Source: a virus
Taxonomy: Duplodnaviria > Heunggongvirae > Uroviricota > Caudoviricetes
IMG/VR virus record: IMGVR_UViG_3300028887_000066
Location: 1 to 64,000 of that record
DNA length: 64,000 bases
Direction: 5' to 3' (one strand)
Below the pieces are notes generated by a model. The model was not told where the DNA came from. It did not search any database and was given only the letters and a program-made list of their open reading frames with translations. Positions 7,801-58,445 of this stretch are shown one piece after another (position 1 is the first letter of the stretch; each line of letters starts with the position of its first letter). A program made the translations under genes and the position numbers.

Positions 7801-10392
7801 CTACAACTTAAAGAAATTGTTCTTGTAATTTTCAAGATCTGCAAACGTGTTGACTTCGCTTAAAATATGGTGTCTTTCAAAGGATGAAACCCCATTAGGG
7901 TTCCTATCAATGTACCCGTCAACTTCAGCCTTAATATCTGTGACACCCAATATAGATTCATCGACATATCCGTCTATTTCTTGAAATGTGCTGTATATCA
8001 TATGAGGCTCGTAATGCACCGCCGCCATTCCGTTTTCAAGCTCAATGAATCCCTCATCACCATTATATATGAATGACTTATCATAATCTATTTTAATGTA
8101 ATAAAATAACGATATTTTCCTATAGTAATGGTCTTTCCTAAATACATACACATCCTGTCCGCCAGTGGTCTTCTTTGTAACAGTATCGCCTGTATAGTGA
8201 TATATAACATTAACGCTTGCCTGCGTTATCTTAGGCATTGTATCCGTATCGATCCGTGCAAAACTTGATATATCATCTGTATCGTTCACTTCCAACCAAG
8301 AATATTGTCCGTCATAATTACCCAAATACTGTGAAATTGTATATGGATGCCATTCTATGAAATCTATCCCCGTGTTCTTTACAGATGAATCGTCATTCGT
8401 ATTGATTATCCTGTCAATAGAATATTCAAACCCTATCAGGTTATTATTAGCTATATTGCTGTAATATTTAGTGTTGGTATTCGTAGTTATTGCGCTTGCT
8501 CCATTACATATTGCCGTAAATACATTATTATGCCCATATATAAAATCGTGGTCAATACTGCATTCTTTCACATACCCATCACTATCAAACTGTATTGAAA
8601 AATATATGTACTCGTCCTGTATATCAAATATGAGGTCAAAATTCACAAAGCTCTTCAAGCCTTTGTGTTTCTCCCAATCAGTACGTCTTGTGGTAGCTAC
8701 CACCCCATTGTTGTTCAGCTTGAGACCGTCTCCGAAATGCAAGTTTTCATTTGTGAAACCGTCATTCTCTATTTTGAAAAAATGCCTTTGGGTATCAGCA
8801 TAATAACTGCTGAAATAAAAATTAATTACATTATTTTCGTTATCAAGATAGAAAAACGCTTCATCCTTATTAGTAAAACCTAATATTTCCTCATCTCCTG
8901 GAATAGTGGCTACCTCAGTAACCTCTTGAATCTCATCGTATTTAGGTTTTCCTGTGTGGCTGAATTTCAACGTCTCAAGAATGTTCGTATACAATTGTCC
9001 ATCTGCATGATACTTGACTTTCGTACTTCCAAGACAATATCTCAACTCACTGAATTGAGTTCCATCTGTAGCCACAAATGGTAATTCTCCGCCATTCTCC
9101 TCAAACGATTTCCTGTATCTTAATATCTCATTTATCCTACTTTTAGAGTAACCTGTAACACCGCTTGGTGGCAGTTCGTCATCTTCAGAGCCATTCAATT
9201 CACTTGCCTTTATCCAATGCTTTGGCCTTCCCGATGCCTCGTAAAATTCATCAAAATATGTAACTTTCTTTTCAGAATCATATTTTCCATTATAATACAT
9301 CGCTTTCCTGTAAAAATGCGGAATTCCATTAACCACTTCTATCTTTACCTCGGTGTCATTATGTGCGGCATTTTTACAAGCGTTGTATACAGACTCAGAC
9401 ACTTCTATATATTCGGTATATGGCGGCCAATATAGTATAAATGCCGATTCGTCTGTATCTCCGCTTAACTTATATCTTACTGTATTTCCCGCATAGTATT
9501 TTTTCCCAGGAATCCACTCTTCAATGTATGGTAGCAATAATCCCATTGCACTAGCCTCTCCTTCCATATACAATGGCATATTGATATAAGGTATTGAACT
9601 TACCGATCTCATATTATCAATAAGAATGTTATCCTTATTTAAGAAAAAATCGGAAAAATAGTAAAATTCTTCTTCGTAGTTTCTATCATCTACCTTGAAT
9701 ATCTTCCAAATTTCATCCCTTAATGCTGATACGGCGATAATTTTACACCATCCATTGCCGTTCCAACATTCAAAACCATAGTTTTCACTTACAAATGAAC
9801 CATCCTTATTTACGACAACATGTATATCACCATATGTTACCCCACTACCATTTTCAATGGGTTTGAATTGCCCTAAAGTGCAATAGTCCAACGACGCTAC
9901 GCTTGGGAGACTTGTAAGAACCGTAGTACATCCAGACGGGTGGTTGAAATAGAAATCGAAATTGTCAACATCGGCTATTTCGACCCAATGATATTTTTCC
10001 TTTTTCCTGCAAAACTTATAAAACCTCATTTCTTCGATATATTTTCTAAGAAGATAAAACCTATCTTCCATTACTTTATACCGCAACACGAGGTTTTCAT
10101 TACATTTGGTGTCGCCACTGTCATCTTCATTAAAACCACAATATACTAAAGGCAATGTATCTGACAAATCTATAAGGGATTCATAATCCAAACCCCTGCC
10201 GTCATTGATTATGTTATTAAAAGGTGTAATATTATTGTTTCTCTTAAAAACTAAATCAACGGGAAAATGTCCCCAACTCGTATATTCATCGGTTGTGGCC
10301 TCCAACAAATCACCATCGTCATACGACGACATTCTATTGTCGTTATAGTTCCTTATCCTGTCAAATACTACAGTTTTTTTTATTGGTTCCAT
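7801..10392 (-). CDS. Putative virion/baseplate protein
   Basis: 863 aa. Overlaps the upstream gene by 13 nt. The EEWIPGKKYYAGNTVRY motif resembles a CBM5/12-type W..G..Y..G..V.Y module. Confidence 0.5.
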   Translation of the reverse strand: MEPIKKTVVFDRIRNYNDNRMSSYDDGDLLEATTDEYTSWGHFPVDLVFKRNNNITPFNNIINDGRGLDYESLIDLSDTLPLVYCGFNEDDSGDTKCNENLVLRYKVMEDRFYLLRKYIEEMRFYKFCRKKEKYHWVEIADVDNFDFYFNHPSGCTTVLTSLPSVASLDYCTLGQFKPIENGSGVTYGDIHVVVNKDGSFVSENYGFECWNGNGWCKIIAVSALRDEIWKIFKVDDRNYEEEFYYFSDFFLNKDNILIDNMRSVSSIPYINMPLYMEGEASAMGLLLPYIEEWIPGKKYYAGNTVRYKLSGDTDESAFILYWPPYTEYIEVSESVYNACKNAAHNDTEVKIEVVNGIPHFYRKAMYYNGKYDSEKKVTYFDEFYEASGRPKHWIKASELNGSEDDELPPSGVTGYSKSRINEILRYRKSFEENGGELPFVATDGTQFSELRYCLGSTKVKYHADGQLYTNILETLKFSHTGKPKYDEIQEVTEVATIPGDEEILGFTNKDEAFFYLDNENNVINFYFSSYYADTQRHFFKIENDGFTNENLHFGDGLKLNNNGVVATTRRTDWEKHKGLKSFVNFDLIFDIQDEYIYFSIQFDSDGYVKECSIDHDFIYGHNNVFTAICNGASAITTNTNTKYYSNIANNNLIGFEYSIDRIINTNDDSSVKNTGIDFIEWHPYTISQYLGNYDGQYSWLEVNDTDDISSFARIDTDTMPKITQASVNVIYHYTGDTVTKKTTGGQDVYVFRKDHYYRKISLFYYIKIDYDKSFIYNGDEGFIELENGMAAVHYEPHMIYSTFQEIDGYVDESILGVTDIKAEVDGYIDRNPNGVSSFERHHILSEVNTFADLENYKNNFFKL

Positions 10393-54977: not shown

Positions 54978-55526
54978 TTAATGCCTTTGTTTTTTCTTAT
55001 CTTTCTTTTCCTTGTCTTCCCTTGCCCGTCCTAACTTTTCCTTTAACATCTTCATCACCGATTCAGGATGACCATTTATGTCATGTTCCCAAATCCTTAT
55101 CAATGGTATCCCGTTCATCAGACACCATCTTGTTTTTTCTTTATCTACCCTGTGATTCCGTTTTTGGGTCGGGTTCATTTCCTCATAAATAAGCCCGTAT
55201 GCGTGCCAATAGTCACCATCGATTTCAAGGGCAAGATTCTCATTCGGACAATAAAAATCAAGGTATCGTCCTATAGATGCCATTCTGAACTGATAAATGT
55301 ACTCCACACCAAGTTTGTCAAGAAAATTCTTTGCAAATCTCACCTCAAGTTCGGATGTGCCGTATTCTGGATGCTCCTTATCCTTCTTCTGCTGAACCAC
55401 GGTGCTTTTCCTAACCTTCAATAAACGGTCATCTTTCACCCTATTAGGGTTAACGGGATTGTTTTTGTTTACTTTTTTAGGTTTTTTCTTGTGTTCCTTT
55501 ACTCCTTTTCTTATCGGTTGTGCCAT
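54978..55526 (-). CDS. DUF559 / Vsr-like PD-(D/E)XK endonuclease with a basic N-terminus
   Basis: TSELE...YIYQF...YLDFYCP...LALEIDGDYWH...DKEK...GIPLIRIWEHDI. Confidence 0.85.
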   Translation of the reverse strand: MAQPIRKGVKEHKKKPKKVNKNNPVNPNRVKDDRLLKVRKSTVVQQKKDKEHPEYGTSELEVRFAKNFLDKLGVEYIYQFRMASIGRYLDFYCPNENLALEIDGDYWHAYGLIYEEMNPTQKRNHRVDKEKTRWCLMNGIPLIRIWEHDINGHPESVMKMLKEKLGRAREDKEKKDKKKQRH

Positions 55527-55674
55527 AGAATAACCTGTCCATTGCTTCTTCCTCTTCTGAGGCTTTCCTTATTATTTCGTCCCTTTCATTGATCAATGAT
55601 TGGTATCCTGCACATTTTTCATCCATTGTTGAAAGCACATTTTCCACCAAATTCAACTGTTCTGCCCTATTCAT
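55477..55674 (-). CDS. Small hypothetical coiled-coil protein
   Basis: 65 aa, overlapping the start of the DUF559 gene. Confidence 0.5.
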   Translation of the reverse strand: MNRAEQLNLVENVLSTMDEKCAGYQSLINERDEIIRKASEEEEAMDRLFYGTTDKKRSKGTQEKT

Positions 55675-55700
55675 AGTTATATTTTACTGTTATTAAAATT

Positions 55701-55820
55701 TAGGCAATTACGTACTTTTTGACCCCAAAAGGTCTAAAGATTTACCGTGTTGACGTTTCATAGGGAGGCTCAATGCCTTTACCCTCACCGTCCTTGCGCC
55801 CACTTGCCTATGGGCTGTTA
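55701..55820 (-). ncRNA. Structured RNA resembling an IS200/IS605 TnpB omega (right-end) RNA scaffold, with no adjacent tnpB
   Basis: On the minus strand: hairpin GCCCA-UAGGCAAG-UGGGC; a GACG...GAAA-CGUC stem enclosing the hairpin AGGG-UAA-AGGC-AUUGA-GCCU-CCCU; a third hairpin GACC/GGUC; and a 3' UUGCCUA complementary to the first loop (7-bp pseudoknot). Confidence 0.6.
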
Positions 55821-55872
55821 TTTTTCTTACATTTTGTAACTATAGGTCTAATAGTATATAGTTATTAAAAAT

Positions 55873-56211
55873 TTATTTCATATATTTAGTAAAGAACGGA
55901 TTGTCTTTCATTGTTTCTATTAGCATTTCCTCATCCTTGCAATATTGCTCGAATAATATTGCATCGGACGGTGATAGCCTGAACCACTCTCCTATTCCGC
56001 GTTTCTGTGCAAACCTGTTATGCAGTTTTCTTTCAATGAAAAACGGGTATTTGGTATAGTATTTTTTGTACAGGTATATTTCACCGCAGTTTCCCGTCTG
56101 TAGTTTTTTTATCCTTTCAGACACGTCACCACGTGTAACACCTATCTTATACATTCCGTCATTCAGAAAATCCTTCAGCAGATATACGAAACCGCCAACT
56201 TTTGACTTCAT
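55873..56211 (-). CDS. GIY-YIG superfamily nuclease (T5orf172 / MUG113-like)
   Basis: GFVYLL...MYKIGVT...ERIKKLQTGN...IERKLHNRF...GEWF. The start is likely the ATG at 56211 rather than 56277. Confidence 0.85.
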   Translation of the reverse strand: MKSKVGGFVYLLKDFLNDGMYKIGVTRGDVSERIKKLQTGNCGEIYLYKKYYTKYPFFIERKLHNRFAQKRGIGEWFRLSPSDAILFEQYCKDEEMLIETMKDNPFFTKYMK

Positions 56212-56278
56212 AGCACTATTTATATAAAGAATAGGTGAATTTCTTTTATAGTAAATAAAAAGAAGTTGACTTTTCATG

Positions 56279-56286
56279 TATTTATA
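56279..56286 (+). promoter_or_regulatory. Putative phage late promoter TATTTATA
   Basis: Upstream of the plus-strand gene at 56335. The motif orientation follows the gene strand. Confidence 0.65.
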
Positions 56287-56334
56287 TCTATATTACAATA
56301 AAAAGACGATAAAACAAATTCAATTCAATAGGAT

Positions 56335-56733
56335 ATGAAGAAGGATTTTACAAGTGATTTCCATGAGATTACGGAAATGACAAACAAGATACGCTCGATA
56401 AATGAGACTATAGCATTCGGAGATTCATACTGTGAGGAAGATGATAAATTCGCCGCAGACAATGCCCAATTTGAAATGGGTGATGACGAAGAGACCGCAG
56501 GGCAAGCAGACCTCGCAAAGATGCAGCAGCCTGAGGAAGAGAAAACTGATGAGGAAAAGGCAATGGAAACAGAAGGTGGTGCAAATGCCGTCAATCAAAT
56601 CCGTGAAATTGCATTGAAAGGCATGATTGCTCTCTGCAATACTCCAGAAGAACCTTTATATCAAGTCCTCAAGAAGGTTTTCACTATGATAGACAAGGCC
56701 GTTGACAAGAGCGACGAAGAACAGCCTAAGTAA
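56335..56733 (+). CDS. Acidic hypothetical protein (probably late/virion)
   Basis: 132 aa with TATTTATA upstream (56279-56286) and a terminator downstream. Confidence 0.75.
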   Translation: MKKDFTSDFHEITEMTNKIRSINETIAFGDSYCEEDDKFAADNAQFEMGDDEETAGQADLAKMQQPEEEKTDEEKAMETEGGANAVNQIREIALKGMIALCNTPEEPLYQVLKKVFTMIDKAVDKSDEEQPK

Positions 56734-56760
56734 TAGAATATATATGCAAATAAACTAAAA

Positions 56761-56792
56761 AATGGCACTCATGTTCATTCACGAGTGCCATT
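56761..56792. terminator. Bidirectional terminator hairpin
   Basis: aatggcactc...gagtgccatt inverted repeat between convergent genes. Confidence 0.7.
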
Positions 56793-58445
56793 CTTGTATA
56801 CATATCTCAATAACCCACAGTCCCATATCTTACAATATCCCAATTTATCCGCCATCTGTGCCTCGGTCATTGACATAGGAAGCCCGTATCTGAAATTAAG
56901 ACCCTTTTTCCTGAAATTGAATTTATGTACTCTCTTAATTGGATTGTTCCTGTTTATGTATTTGTAGTCAGGTTTCAGCACACCATCCAATACAAACCCT
57001 AACTTGGTGTATATATTGTTTTCTTCATCCATCGTCCACCTTCTATCAGCAAACGACTTTACAATAAGCGGGCTTTTCTCCCTTAAAAAGTGCTTGAACA
57101 GTTTTCCACCCACACCACAGCATACGTACCTGTAGTCTGTTGCGAACCTGACCAATTCCCACTCCTCTTTTCTTTGGATGAAGCTCATAACACCTATCAG
57201 TTCATCATTGAAGTACGCCCCGTATGACACAGTACCCTTTCCATATCCCTGTATGTGGTATCTCTCAAGAAACTCCTGTGCTACCCATTTTTCTATTTCC
57301 CTTACTACGCACTTTCTTGCATATATTTTATCTTTAACTCCGTCTTTTCCTATAATATGAAGTATCTTATTGAACACGAGGTCTTTATCCTTATTGAATT
57401 CATCCTCGAATATATGAATTATCCTTACACCCTTCTTCAAAGCATCTTCAGTCTTCTCCAAGTGATATACCGAATCTTTTCCGAATTCCTCTGAATGCCA
57501 TTTCAGACCATTATACTCAATGCCTATCCTTAGTGACTTGATATATATGTCAATCTCCCTTCCATCCAATATTTCCCTGTCTCTCTTGACCACATCATCC
57601 TCTCCAAGATGCCATGTAAGAAAGTCATAGATTTCATTTTCGGCATTAGATAACACAACGGCACAATGCGGGCAACCATGTCCGTTCAATTGATCATATG
57701 GTCTCTGATAAAATACACCGTGTTTCGGACACACGATTTTCATTGGTTGCTTGAAATCTATGTAGTCCTCTTTATTATAAATGTATTTATCTCCTTGTGT
57801 TTTTTTAACCCTCTCAATAAATTCCTCAAATGTAACTTTATGTTTTTCACATCTTTTAATTATTCCACATTTAGGGCATCCTTGTTTCTTTGATAGGTGT
57901 TTACTTGGTGTCATCCAAAATTCACCGTGTATCGGACAAATGATACATACTTTTTCATGCATTTTATGGAATACAACTTTAGAATAGTCATACTTGTCAC
58001 CGTGTACTCTCTTGAACTCCTCTATTAAACTATCGGTTGTCCTATATTTTCCTTTACATTTAGGACATCCTTGTTTTTGACAATTAACATGGGCTGATGG
58101 TGTCATCCAAAATTCACCATGTTCAGGACAGATGATACACACCTTAGTCATTTGATTTACGTATTCTACTTTAGAATAGTCATATTTATCTCCGTGTATC
58201 TTTCGTGCCTTCTCAATAAACTGTTCAAGGGTGTCTCTTAACCCCCTTTTTAAATTTGCGCATTTTGGGCAGTTATAACCTCTTACATGTGCGGCAGGCT
58301 CTTGCCAAAACTCACCATGTTCAGGACATATTATTCTCATTTTAACCGATGATTTTACATATGTATTTTCATCATATCGGTATTTATCTCCATGTACCTT
58401 TCTTGCTTTTTCTAAAAAAGCTTCAAAACCCGTCTTTTTTGTCAT
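56775..58445 (-). CDS. Homing-endonuclease-like protein: four Zn-ribbon repeats, a PD-(D/E)XK nuclease domain and a C-terminal GNAT/Mom-like domain
   Basis: Four repeats of F.EK...HGDKYDYS...IICP.HG.F...P..H...GCP.C. Nuclease motif EIDIYI...IGIEYNGLKWH...IHIFEDE. C-terminal ELVRFA...GGKLF...SFADRRW...IYTKLGF. Confidence 0.8.
   Translation of the reverse strand: MTKKTGFEAFLEKARKVHGDKYRYDENTYVKSSVKMRIICPEHGEFWQEPAAHVRGYNCPKCANLKRGLRDTLEQFIEKARKIHGDKYDYSKVEYVNQMTKVCIICPEHGEFWMTPSAHVNCQKQGCPKCKGKYRTTDSLIEEFKRVHGDKYDYSKVVFHKMHEKVCIICPIHGEFWMTPSKHLSKKQGCPKCGIIKRCEKHKVTFEEFIERVKKTQGDKYIYNKEDYIDFKQPMKIVCPKHGVFYQRPYDQLNGHGCPHCAVVLSNAENEIYDFLTWHLGEDDVVKRDREILDGREIDIYIKSLRIGIEYNGLKWHSEEFGKDSVYHLEKTEDALKKGVRIIHIFEDEFNKDKDLVFNKILHIIGKDGVKDKIYARKCVVREIEKWVAQEFLERYHIQGYGKGTVSYGAYFNDELIGVMSFIQRKEEWELVRFATDYRYVCCGVGGKLFKHFLREKSPLIVKSFADRRWTMDEENNIYTKLGFVLDGVLKPDYKYINRNNPIKRVHKFNFRKKGLNFRYGLPMSMTEAQMADKLGYCKIWDCGLLRYVYKNGTRE

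Follow-up and report, generated by a model that had tools for sequence, protein, structure and literature searches.

A 173-nt insertion in a jumbo phage genome carries an orphan structured RNA that belongs to a family of TnpB omega-RNA scaffolds, is missing from the same site in sister phages, and runs into flanking DNA identical to the unoccupied site. The DNA analysed here (the window) is a 64,000-nucleotide stretch that makes up the first 64 kb of the 356,121-bp virus record IMGVR_UViG_3300028887_000066 (Duplodnaviria; Heunggongvirae; Uroviricota; Caudoviricetes), which has a completeness rating of 100%. The insertion lies at 55700-55872 on the minus strand, between a T5orf172/MUG113 nuclease gene and a 65-amino-acid (aa) open reading frame (ORF), with limits that are ambiguous within an 11-nt repeat. 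Judged by its sequence, it appears to be composed of a short, degenerate left-end-like stretch followed by a complete right end (RE) encoding an omega-RNA scaffold of ~115 nt. We give somewhat better than even credence to the reading that it is a protein-free, non-autonomous derivative of a tnpB-only insertion sequence (IS), resembling palindrome-associated transposable elements (PATEs) or miniature inverted-repeat transposable elements (MITEs), which the phage's own TnpB uses in trans to home into or retain its site. Jumbo phages of the rumen and gut commonly carry the parent tnpB-only insertion sequence.

Read on the minus strand, the RNA contains hairpin 1, the GACG/CGUC stem, a third hairpin and a 7-nt complement to the hairpin-1 loop, each where a first-pass annotation made from the letters alone had placed it. 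Hairpin 1 (55798-55815), GCCCA[UAGGCAAG]UGGGC, retains 5 of 5 pairs, 3 of which covary in the family, and its loop UAGGCAA supplies the 5' strand of a pseudoknot. It is followed by an invariant core (55752-55792) made up of the GACG (55792-55789)/CGUC (55755-55752) stem, an internal loop resembling a kink-turn (K-turn), a GGG/CCC stem and the apical hairpin AGGC[AUUGA]GCCU; the core is the same in all 35 members of the alignment, with covariation (UA/AU/GC) in the apical stem. The third hairpin (55710-55748) is present in the 'long' subtype of the RNA family, and in the RNA at this locus, called copy 1 below, its outer stem shows two compensatory double changes (C:G and G:C, where other members have U:A and A:U). 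The 3' strand of the pseudoknot, UUGCCUA (55701-55707), is the exact complement of the loop UAGGCAA over 7 bp, with the right end of the element following at 55700. All 30 scored pairs are intact in copy 1.

The K-turn-like motif (55781-55792 with 55752-55764, minus strand) consists of the GGG/CCC stem, a 3-nt bulge URU, tandem G.A/A.G pairs and the GACG/CGUC stem. Its internal loop, GUGA opposite URUGAAA (UAUGAAA in copy 1), is invariant in 35 of 35 members and looks like a K-turn when read by eye; we know of no description of such a motif as an omega-RNA feature.

The first-pass annotation had also described this gap as more GC-rich and more structured than others, which is true of the 115-nt scaffold in composition (48.7% GC versus 36.7% for the window) but not of the entire intergenic gap (34.8%), and single-sequence folding was unremarkable, with a minimum free energy (MFE) of -38.6 kcal/mol that was matched by 43 of 200 shuffles (z = -0.81). 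The structure is therefore demonstrated by comparison and not by thermodynamics. Pair counts were made on 35 related long-type sequences, with partners slid by 1-3 columns and 500 shuffles serving as controls, and standard pairs were found in 92.3% of pair cells, compared to 35-43% with slid partners. Changes on both sides occurred in 15 of 32 pairs, and 0 of 500 shuffles reached the observed values. Covariation was found in every variable helix and in the pseudoknot, the feature for which the first-pass annotation had proposed such a check: 3 of its 7 counted pairs change on both sides, its centre pair takes the forms GC (12), UA (10), UG (5), AU (4) and CG (3), and each of its five core pairs (positions 18-22 with 130-134) is formed in at least 34 of the 35 sequences.

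Relatives of the RNA lie at the 3' ends of tnpB genes. Blastn against the phage's own genome returned two paralogs of the first ~80 nt (copies 2 and 3), and the paralog at 196.9 kb (196842-196971) is directly 3' of the genome's only tnpB. We gathered further relatives with a 40-nt core pattern (GGACGGUGAGGG ... CCCURUGAAACGUC) and protein database look-ups; the pattern matched 8 IMG/VR loci, 3 genome contigs (two from Bacteroidales metagenome-assembled genomes and one chance match) and 46 metagenome loci. After removal of duplicates and two chance matches, 44 copies remained, with a TnpB frame directly upstream in 27 and absent in 17, which we call orphans. The upstream TnpB frames of long-subtype relatives are 57-64% identical to this phage's TnpB. 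Copy 1 itself is not at a tnpB 3' end and follows the T5orf172 gene, and was filed as an orphan member. A covariance model built from 26 tnpB-linked members only, with a structure chosen by RNAalifold (model R2), gave a single match in the 64-kb window, at 55690-55825(-), with 116.2 bits, an E value of 3e-26 and model positions 1-135 of 135 covered, and a second covariance model that included copy 1 found only the three known copies in the whole genome. Rfam, whose curated omega-RNA-type families include HEARO and the IS605-orfB RNAs, in contrast gave no match at gathering score across the 64 kb and none at E ≤ 10 in 55300-56900, so that the covariance-model check suggested at the outset returned nothing from published models and a strong match from a model of tnpB-linked relatives; this is an RNA family without an Rfam model. 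The occurrence of relatives at tnpB 3' ends in this phage and on 26 other contigs, the R2 match and the covarying pseudoknot bear out the earlier proposal that the RNA is an intact scaffold of TnpB omega-RNA type, and no test that was run spoke against this identity. Among 50,697 phage records, blastn with the locus as query returned no match, and peptide-pattern searches of IMG/VR for relatives of the 187-aa and T5orf172 proteins returned nothing usable.

The family divides into the long subtype, with the third hairpin before the pseudoknot strand, and a 'short' subtype without that hairpin, and the invariant core is common to both. Copy 1 and most tnpB-linked members are long. As a group, orphan copies show some decay in hairpin 1, with 71% of cells paired compared to 98% in tnpB-linked copies and only 1 of 5 pairs kept in the orphans L024 and L033, and several orphans (L029/L036, L050, L053 and L025) are clearly miniatures of a left end (LE) joined to a right end. 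Two short-subtype orphan scaffolds, L010:6460-6634(-) and L030:6793-6926(+), resemble stand-alone genes, each with a promoter-like motif TTTG..TATATTTAC just upstream and a ~25-nt guide followed by a GC-rich hairpin with a T-run. The second paralog in this phage's genome (G000), at 309494-309622 (minus), is likewise a short-subtype orphan, L002; over 130 nt it shares 90% identity with the tnpB-linked copy, from which it differs in its flank or guide.

The insertion is polymorphic among sister phages. No listed ORF of at least 40 aa lies inside the 173-nt segment. Many short metagenome contigs encode the T5orf172 protein at 99-100% identity, and look-ups with this protein (L072-L078) and with the 65-aa protein (L090-L092 and L094) yielded 11 readable empty contigs whose flanks are 97.4-99.6% identical to those here; for L072-L078 the range is 97.5-99.6%, barring a divergent far-upstream stretch in two contigs. 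Alignments of these contigs break at 55861 and resume at 55702 with exactly 173 nt missing, and the distance from the T5orf172 stop codon to the start of the 65-aa ORF is 25 nt in empty alleles versus 198 nt in this genome. Five further contigs (four from the 65-aa look-up and one from the T5orf172 look-up) have empty-type gene spacing, judged by that spacing alone. Two occupied alleles were found: L093, which is 100% identical and probably the same genome, and L095, which comes from an independent run and shows 0 differences in the 173 nt. The element is also missing from more distant relatives, namely L079 (80%), G002 and, judged by gene spacing, the P0007 loci (~45-60% protein identity for G002 and P0007), and its absence is therefore ancestral. 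In flanks of ~1.8 kb, L095 differs from the empty contigs L090, L092 and L094 by 10-12 single-nucleotide polymorphisms (SNPs) and from this genome by 18 SNPs; presence and absence do not follow the flanking SNPs, a pattern that needs at least two events, or recombination. Both the tnpB-linked copies and the empty-site alleles that the first-pass annotation had recommended searching for thus exist, and its suggestion of a non-autonomous mini-element agrees with a 173-nt insertion that sister phages lack.

With carets marking the junctions, the empty allele reads GAAATAA^ATTTTAATAACAGTAAAAT (also given as GAAATAA^ATTTTAATAACAGTAAAATATAG) and the occupied allele GAAATAA^[ATTTTTAATAAC ... UUGCCUAA]^ATTTTAATAACAGTAAAAT, with the right junction ...UUGCCUAA^AUUUUAAUAACAGUAAAAUAUAA. 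Because the right flank of the occupied allele equals the sequence that follows GAAATAA in empty alleles, the guide equals the empty site: the predicted guide, AUUUUAAUAACAGUAAAAUA (55680-55699, minus strand), is the DNA that stands beside GAAATAA where the element is missing. This match extends over the first 22 nt past the element, the alleles differing at position 23, and the length of the guide was assumed from ISDra2, where 16 nt are used (PMC10097598). The guide had originally been placed at about 55700-55681, which is right to within one base, since the empty alleles give 55699-55680. Matches to the guide elsewhere in the phage's own genome, which had been expected to be worth a search, were not found: none of the three guides has a second genomic target there at ≤2 mismatches in 16 nt beyond AT-rich chance matches. 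For copy 2, database look-ups with the exact protein sequences of its neighbours gave no match.

The two ends of the element differ in how readily they can be recognised. The right end is clearly homologous to that of full-length elements, as the R2 match indicates, and three comparisons (L015 versus L017 from one related phage, L014 versus L016 from different contigs, and copies 2 versus 3) diverge 1-3 nt past the pseudoknot strand, which is therefore where we placed it. The left part (55816-55872, minus strand) is AT-rich, with a GC content of 17.5%, and contains a weak LE-like stretch at 55863-55845. From near 55832 on (by blastn, ~37 nt before the core), the sequence is homologous to the omega-RNA leader and tnpB 3' end of relatives; blastn gave no LE match for the left part of copy 1, and a left end in the form of an exact inverted copy of the element's own right end was not found. 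An 11-nt stretch, TATATACTATT, is common to the left part of copy 1 and the left end of the tnpB-linked L061. When an nhmmer profile of 11 family left ends was run, its top match in the window was the inverse of the element's own right end. The best genome-wide match of this profile lies at G000 ~338310-338620 (minus), with 15.6 bits and an E value of 0.0055, and has a right-end-like terminus ~310 nt downstream; a small ORF and no omega-RNA core lie between these ends, and the locus may be a derivative with different cargo. Full-length elements (for example L013, L043, L015 and L017) carry ~25 nt at the left end that are the inverted complement of their right end. The complementarity takes in the pseudoknot strand and one half of hairpin 3, an arrangement that is like a terminal inverted repeat and untypical of IS200/IS605.

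A 10-mer, TTTTAATAAC, flanks the element as a direct repeat on the minus strand (right copy at 55689-55698, left copy at 55861-55870); it occurs 5 times in 356 kb, always on the minus strand, and two of these occurrences are the flanking ones. The longer, imperfect 11-nt version of this repeat leaves the position of the junction ambiguous. The junctions have a parallel in a second element, L016, for which an empty site is seen in the related phage G002, with the left flank ...ATAAATAG(T)^ and the element end ...CCTAG(T)^; the ...GAAATAA^ and ...GCCTAA^ found here correspond to these, ATAA^/CTAA^ standing in place of ATAG^/CTAG^. In G002-like phages, a full tnpB element of the family (L016:1579-2951, L048 and L064) lies just upstream of the T5orf172 homolog, and the G002 empty site, at L021 ~9300-9340, reads AAATAGT^TTATTTTC. 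As the sequences stand, this second, independent insertion beside the same nuclease cassette points to a hot spot for mobile elements and not to a partnership with the nuclease.

The genome's only tnpB is located at 196945-198060 on the minus strand, 141 kb from the element, and encodes a 371-aa protein matching PF07282 (93 bits) and PF01385 (91.7 bits). Both matches fall only outside positions 1-64000, and PF01797 is found nowhere in the genome, in keeping with the first-pass statement that the window holds neither tnpB nor tnpA. The RuvC triad D189/E273/D355 is invariant in the phage TnpB and five relatives, and all sister contigs that were found carry tnpB at the corresponding locus. An intact tnpB elsewhere in the phage fits the earlier suggestion of a guide acting in trans, which is compatible with a mini-element, but not the part of that suggestion that invoked a TldR, as the D-E-D triad is kept.

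These observations suggest a mechanism. The element would have entered the phage lineage directly after the T5orf172 stop codon, at ...GAAATAA^, so that the RNA would run on into the flank as a guide identical to the unoccupied allele. Copy 1 sits within a co-oriented gene row, which makes its transcription likely; in our proposal, read-through from the T5orf172 gene would produce the omega-RNA, which would be loaded in trans by the phage's single, predicted catalytically intact TnpB, encoded 141 kb away. Acting beside a putative AAATAR-type adjacent motif, the complex would cut GAAATAA-ATTTTAATAACAGTAAAA in genomes without the element, whether those of co-infecting sister phages or a copy that had lost it, and recombinational repair from an occupied genome would copy the element in. 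Use in trans by the phage TnpB, with homing between co-infecting phages, is plausible on this evidence. How the element reached its site may be explained by a host transposase or by recombination after TnpB cutting.

Several findings weigh against use of the element by this TnpB, or against its simple derivation from an IS200/IS605-type element. Classical IS200/IS605 insertion produces no duplication, and the imperfect 11-nt direct repeat that flanks the element (ATTTTTAATAAC and ATTTTAATAAC) is not predicted by peel-and-paste insertion. The left end is weak, matching the LE profile at 55863-55845(-) with only 7.6 bits and an E value of 0.4, rank 5 in the window. The Y1 transposase (PF01797) is absent from this phage and three related records, and the serine recombinase PF00239 is absent from this phage. 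The phage's own omega-RNAs, copies 2 and 3, are of the short subtype without the third hairpin, while the scaffold of copy 1 is long. No promoter of copy 1's own, sigma-70-like or of the form TTTG..TAnnTTTG, was found. Since every sister contig carries tnpB, the search for an unoccupied site of the phage's own tnpB element came up empty as well, so that the adjacent motif of its TnpB could not be read. Finally, the lack of any difference between occupied alleles in 173 nt is not significant, as ~1.7 would be expected.

The missing promoter and the mismatch in subtype are also what would be expected if the element had the same origin but were inert, that is, a recently acquired and decaying solo right end or mini-IS whose RNA is used by no TnpB, with its intact structure reflecting nothing more than youth and its patchy distribution produced by ordinary recombination among phages or by deletion between the two repeats that flank it. 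We regard this as the chief competitor, appreciably less probable than use in trans and still to be taken seriously. The decay of hairpin 1 in orphan copies as a group fits it, and the flanking 10-11-nt repeat could mediate precise loss. However, copy 1 retains every scored pair, the co-oriented gene row makes transcription likely, an intact TnpB is fixed in the lineage, the invariant core is common to both subtypes, and the presence or absence of the element is incongruent with flanking SNPs. A different history, in which the occupied state is ancestral in the phage species and the empty alleles are products of precise deletion, occurring repeatedly between the TTTTAATAAC repeats, or of excision by a transposase, with no recent insertion, strikes us as improbable. 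Every empty allele does retain one copy of the repeat, and repeat-mediated deletion of PATEs and IS605-type elements is documented in passages of PMC3119063; against this, the outgroups L079, G002 and P0007 lack the element and empty alleles are the majority (11 readable versus 2 occupied), and the identity of the element would in any case stay the same.

Two further explanations set TnpB aside. The first-pass annotation had offered a domesticated RNA working with a different protein, here taken as the neighbouring GIY-YIG or DUF559 protein, and one can extend this to a structured 3' untranslated region or regulator of the T5orf172 and 65-aa genes, or a partner of the neighbouring non-TnpB nucleases. 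What speaks for such a role is position, between the T5orf172 and DUF559-type genes and overlapping the leader of the 65-aa ORF, but the T5orf172 gene and the 65-aa ORF are adjacent (25 nt apart) in sister phages without the RNA, the T5orf172 and DUF559 genes are adjacent without it at the more distant G002 and P0007 loci, and copy 1 is alone in its family in lying downstream of a T5orf172 gene; we therefore abandon the domestication proposal as very improbable. Less credible still, and dropped, is a reading of the RNA as the 3' portion of a group I intron, or of some other known ribozyme or riboswitch, carrying the T5orf172 endonuclease gene. Phage group I introns typically place a structured RNA beside a gene of GIY-YIG type, yet Rfam gave no match at either threshold, there is no split host gene, the RNA belongs to a tnpB-attached family, and the empty alleles drop the 173 nt alone and keep the endonuclease gene.

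A protein-free derivative used in trans would have close counterparts among PATEs, which are IS200/IS605 derivatives made up of LE and RE with no protein encoded (Dyall-Smith 2011, PMC3119063; Meers et al. 2023, PMC10055086); PATEs encoding omega-RNAs that need TnpB in trans have been described (PMC10055086). Like them, the element contains no gene, retains the part of a tnpB element that codes for the omega-RNA, its right end, is polymorphic between strains, has a guide made of flanking DNA and would need a nuclease (and, if it transposes, a transposase) in trans. Unlike them, it resides in a lytic-type jumbo phage and not in a cellular chromosome, its left end is short and weakly recognisable, an imperfect 11-nt direct repeat flanks it, its full-length relatives show ~25 nt of LE/RE inverted complementarity, and there is no TnpA in the replicon. 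The identity of guide and empty site is the arrangement of the TnpB homing model (PMC10055086).

The ISDra2 omega-RNA has a 116-nt scaffold with a pseudoknot in which the 5' region pairs with the bases immediately preceding the guide, as seen by cryo-EM (Nakagawa et al. 2023, PMC10097598). The scaffold here is likewise ~115 nt long and followed by the guide, the pseudoknot has the same layout, and the RNA overlaps the tnpB 3' end in tnpB-linked family members. In contrast to ISDra2, however, the pseudoknot partner here is a hairpin loop, the core is invariant and K-turn-like, and copy 1 has no adjoining tnpB; there is no detectable sequence similarity between the two, and no Rfam model matches the RNA described here. 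T-even phages have free-standing homing endonuclease genes and intronless homing (reviewed in PMC13565253), which share the proposed outcome, in which the allele of a co-infecting relative is cut and repair copies the selfish DNA, and share a setting in an island of homing-endonuclease-like genes. The differences are that recognition would be by an RNA guide plus an adjacent motif and not by protein, that the nuclease is encoded 141 kb from the homing DNA, and that the present case is known from sequence alone.

Wiegand and colleagues are said to have described, in 2024, TldRs, nuclease-dead TnpB regulators with stand-alone guide RNAs. Such systems resemble the present one in having a guide RNA gene apart from transposon ends that is used by a TnpB-family protein, but differ in that the phage TnpB here keeps its D-E-D RuvC triad, the guide matches its own insertion site and there is no second genomic match. 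A TldR-type regulator was rejected for the intact triad and for a guide that matches the insertion site and not a distant promoter.

The genes that flank the element lie outside it. Directly upstream is the T5orf172/MUG113 nuclease gene (55873-56277, minus strand; PF13455 1.4e-14, PF10544 3.3e-9), whose stop codon is part of the GAAATAA left flank. Pfam thus agrees with the first-pass identification of this gene as a nuclease, and we take both families to be members of the GIY-YIG clan. Directly downstream is the 65-aa ORF (55477-55674, minus strand), which is a gene call on at least 24 contigs and whose 5' leader overlaps the guide region, followed by a DUF559-type endonuclease gene. At 54978-58445 of the window (minus strand), homing-endonuclease-like genes form an island that codes for a 556-aa DUF723/HNH-type protein, the T5orf172 protein and the DUF559-type protein; paralogs of the 556-aa protein are encoded at 171.5 kb and 348.3 kb of the genome. 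A 132-aa plus-strand ORF (56335-56733) is called by gene callers on sister contigs and is probably a divergently oriented gene, while a low-complexity 89-aa minus-strand ORF (56325-56594) that overlaps it is probably spurious. Elsewhere in the genome, a tRNA-like sequence with an apparent CAU anticodon was read by eye at G000 ~196020-196095 (minus), within an extended non-coding region; the tnpB-linked omega-RNA lies ~750 nt upstream of it.

The RNA is thus explained as a TnpB-family guide scaffold with ~44 members in rumen and gut phage contigs and represents no new kind of system, protein-less omega-RNA elements having already been described in bacteria and archaea. The locus is a clean natural test case, as occupied and empty alleles of the same phage exist in public metagenomes, and TnpB-driven homing between co-infecting viruses can be tested with one RNA, one protein and one 30-bp target. 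As a tentative extension that we consider rather unlikely, the element may be a guide-only gene drive in the phage population, in which 173 nt arm a TnpB already encoded by all sister phages against the unoccupied allele. If so, co-infecting empty genomes would be cut and converted, or excluded, in an RNA-guided form of 'marker exclusion' in which the homing DNA is unlinked from its nuclease, and the incongruence between the element and its flanking SNPs would be its footprint.

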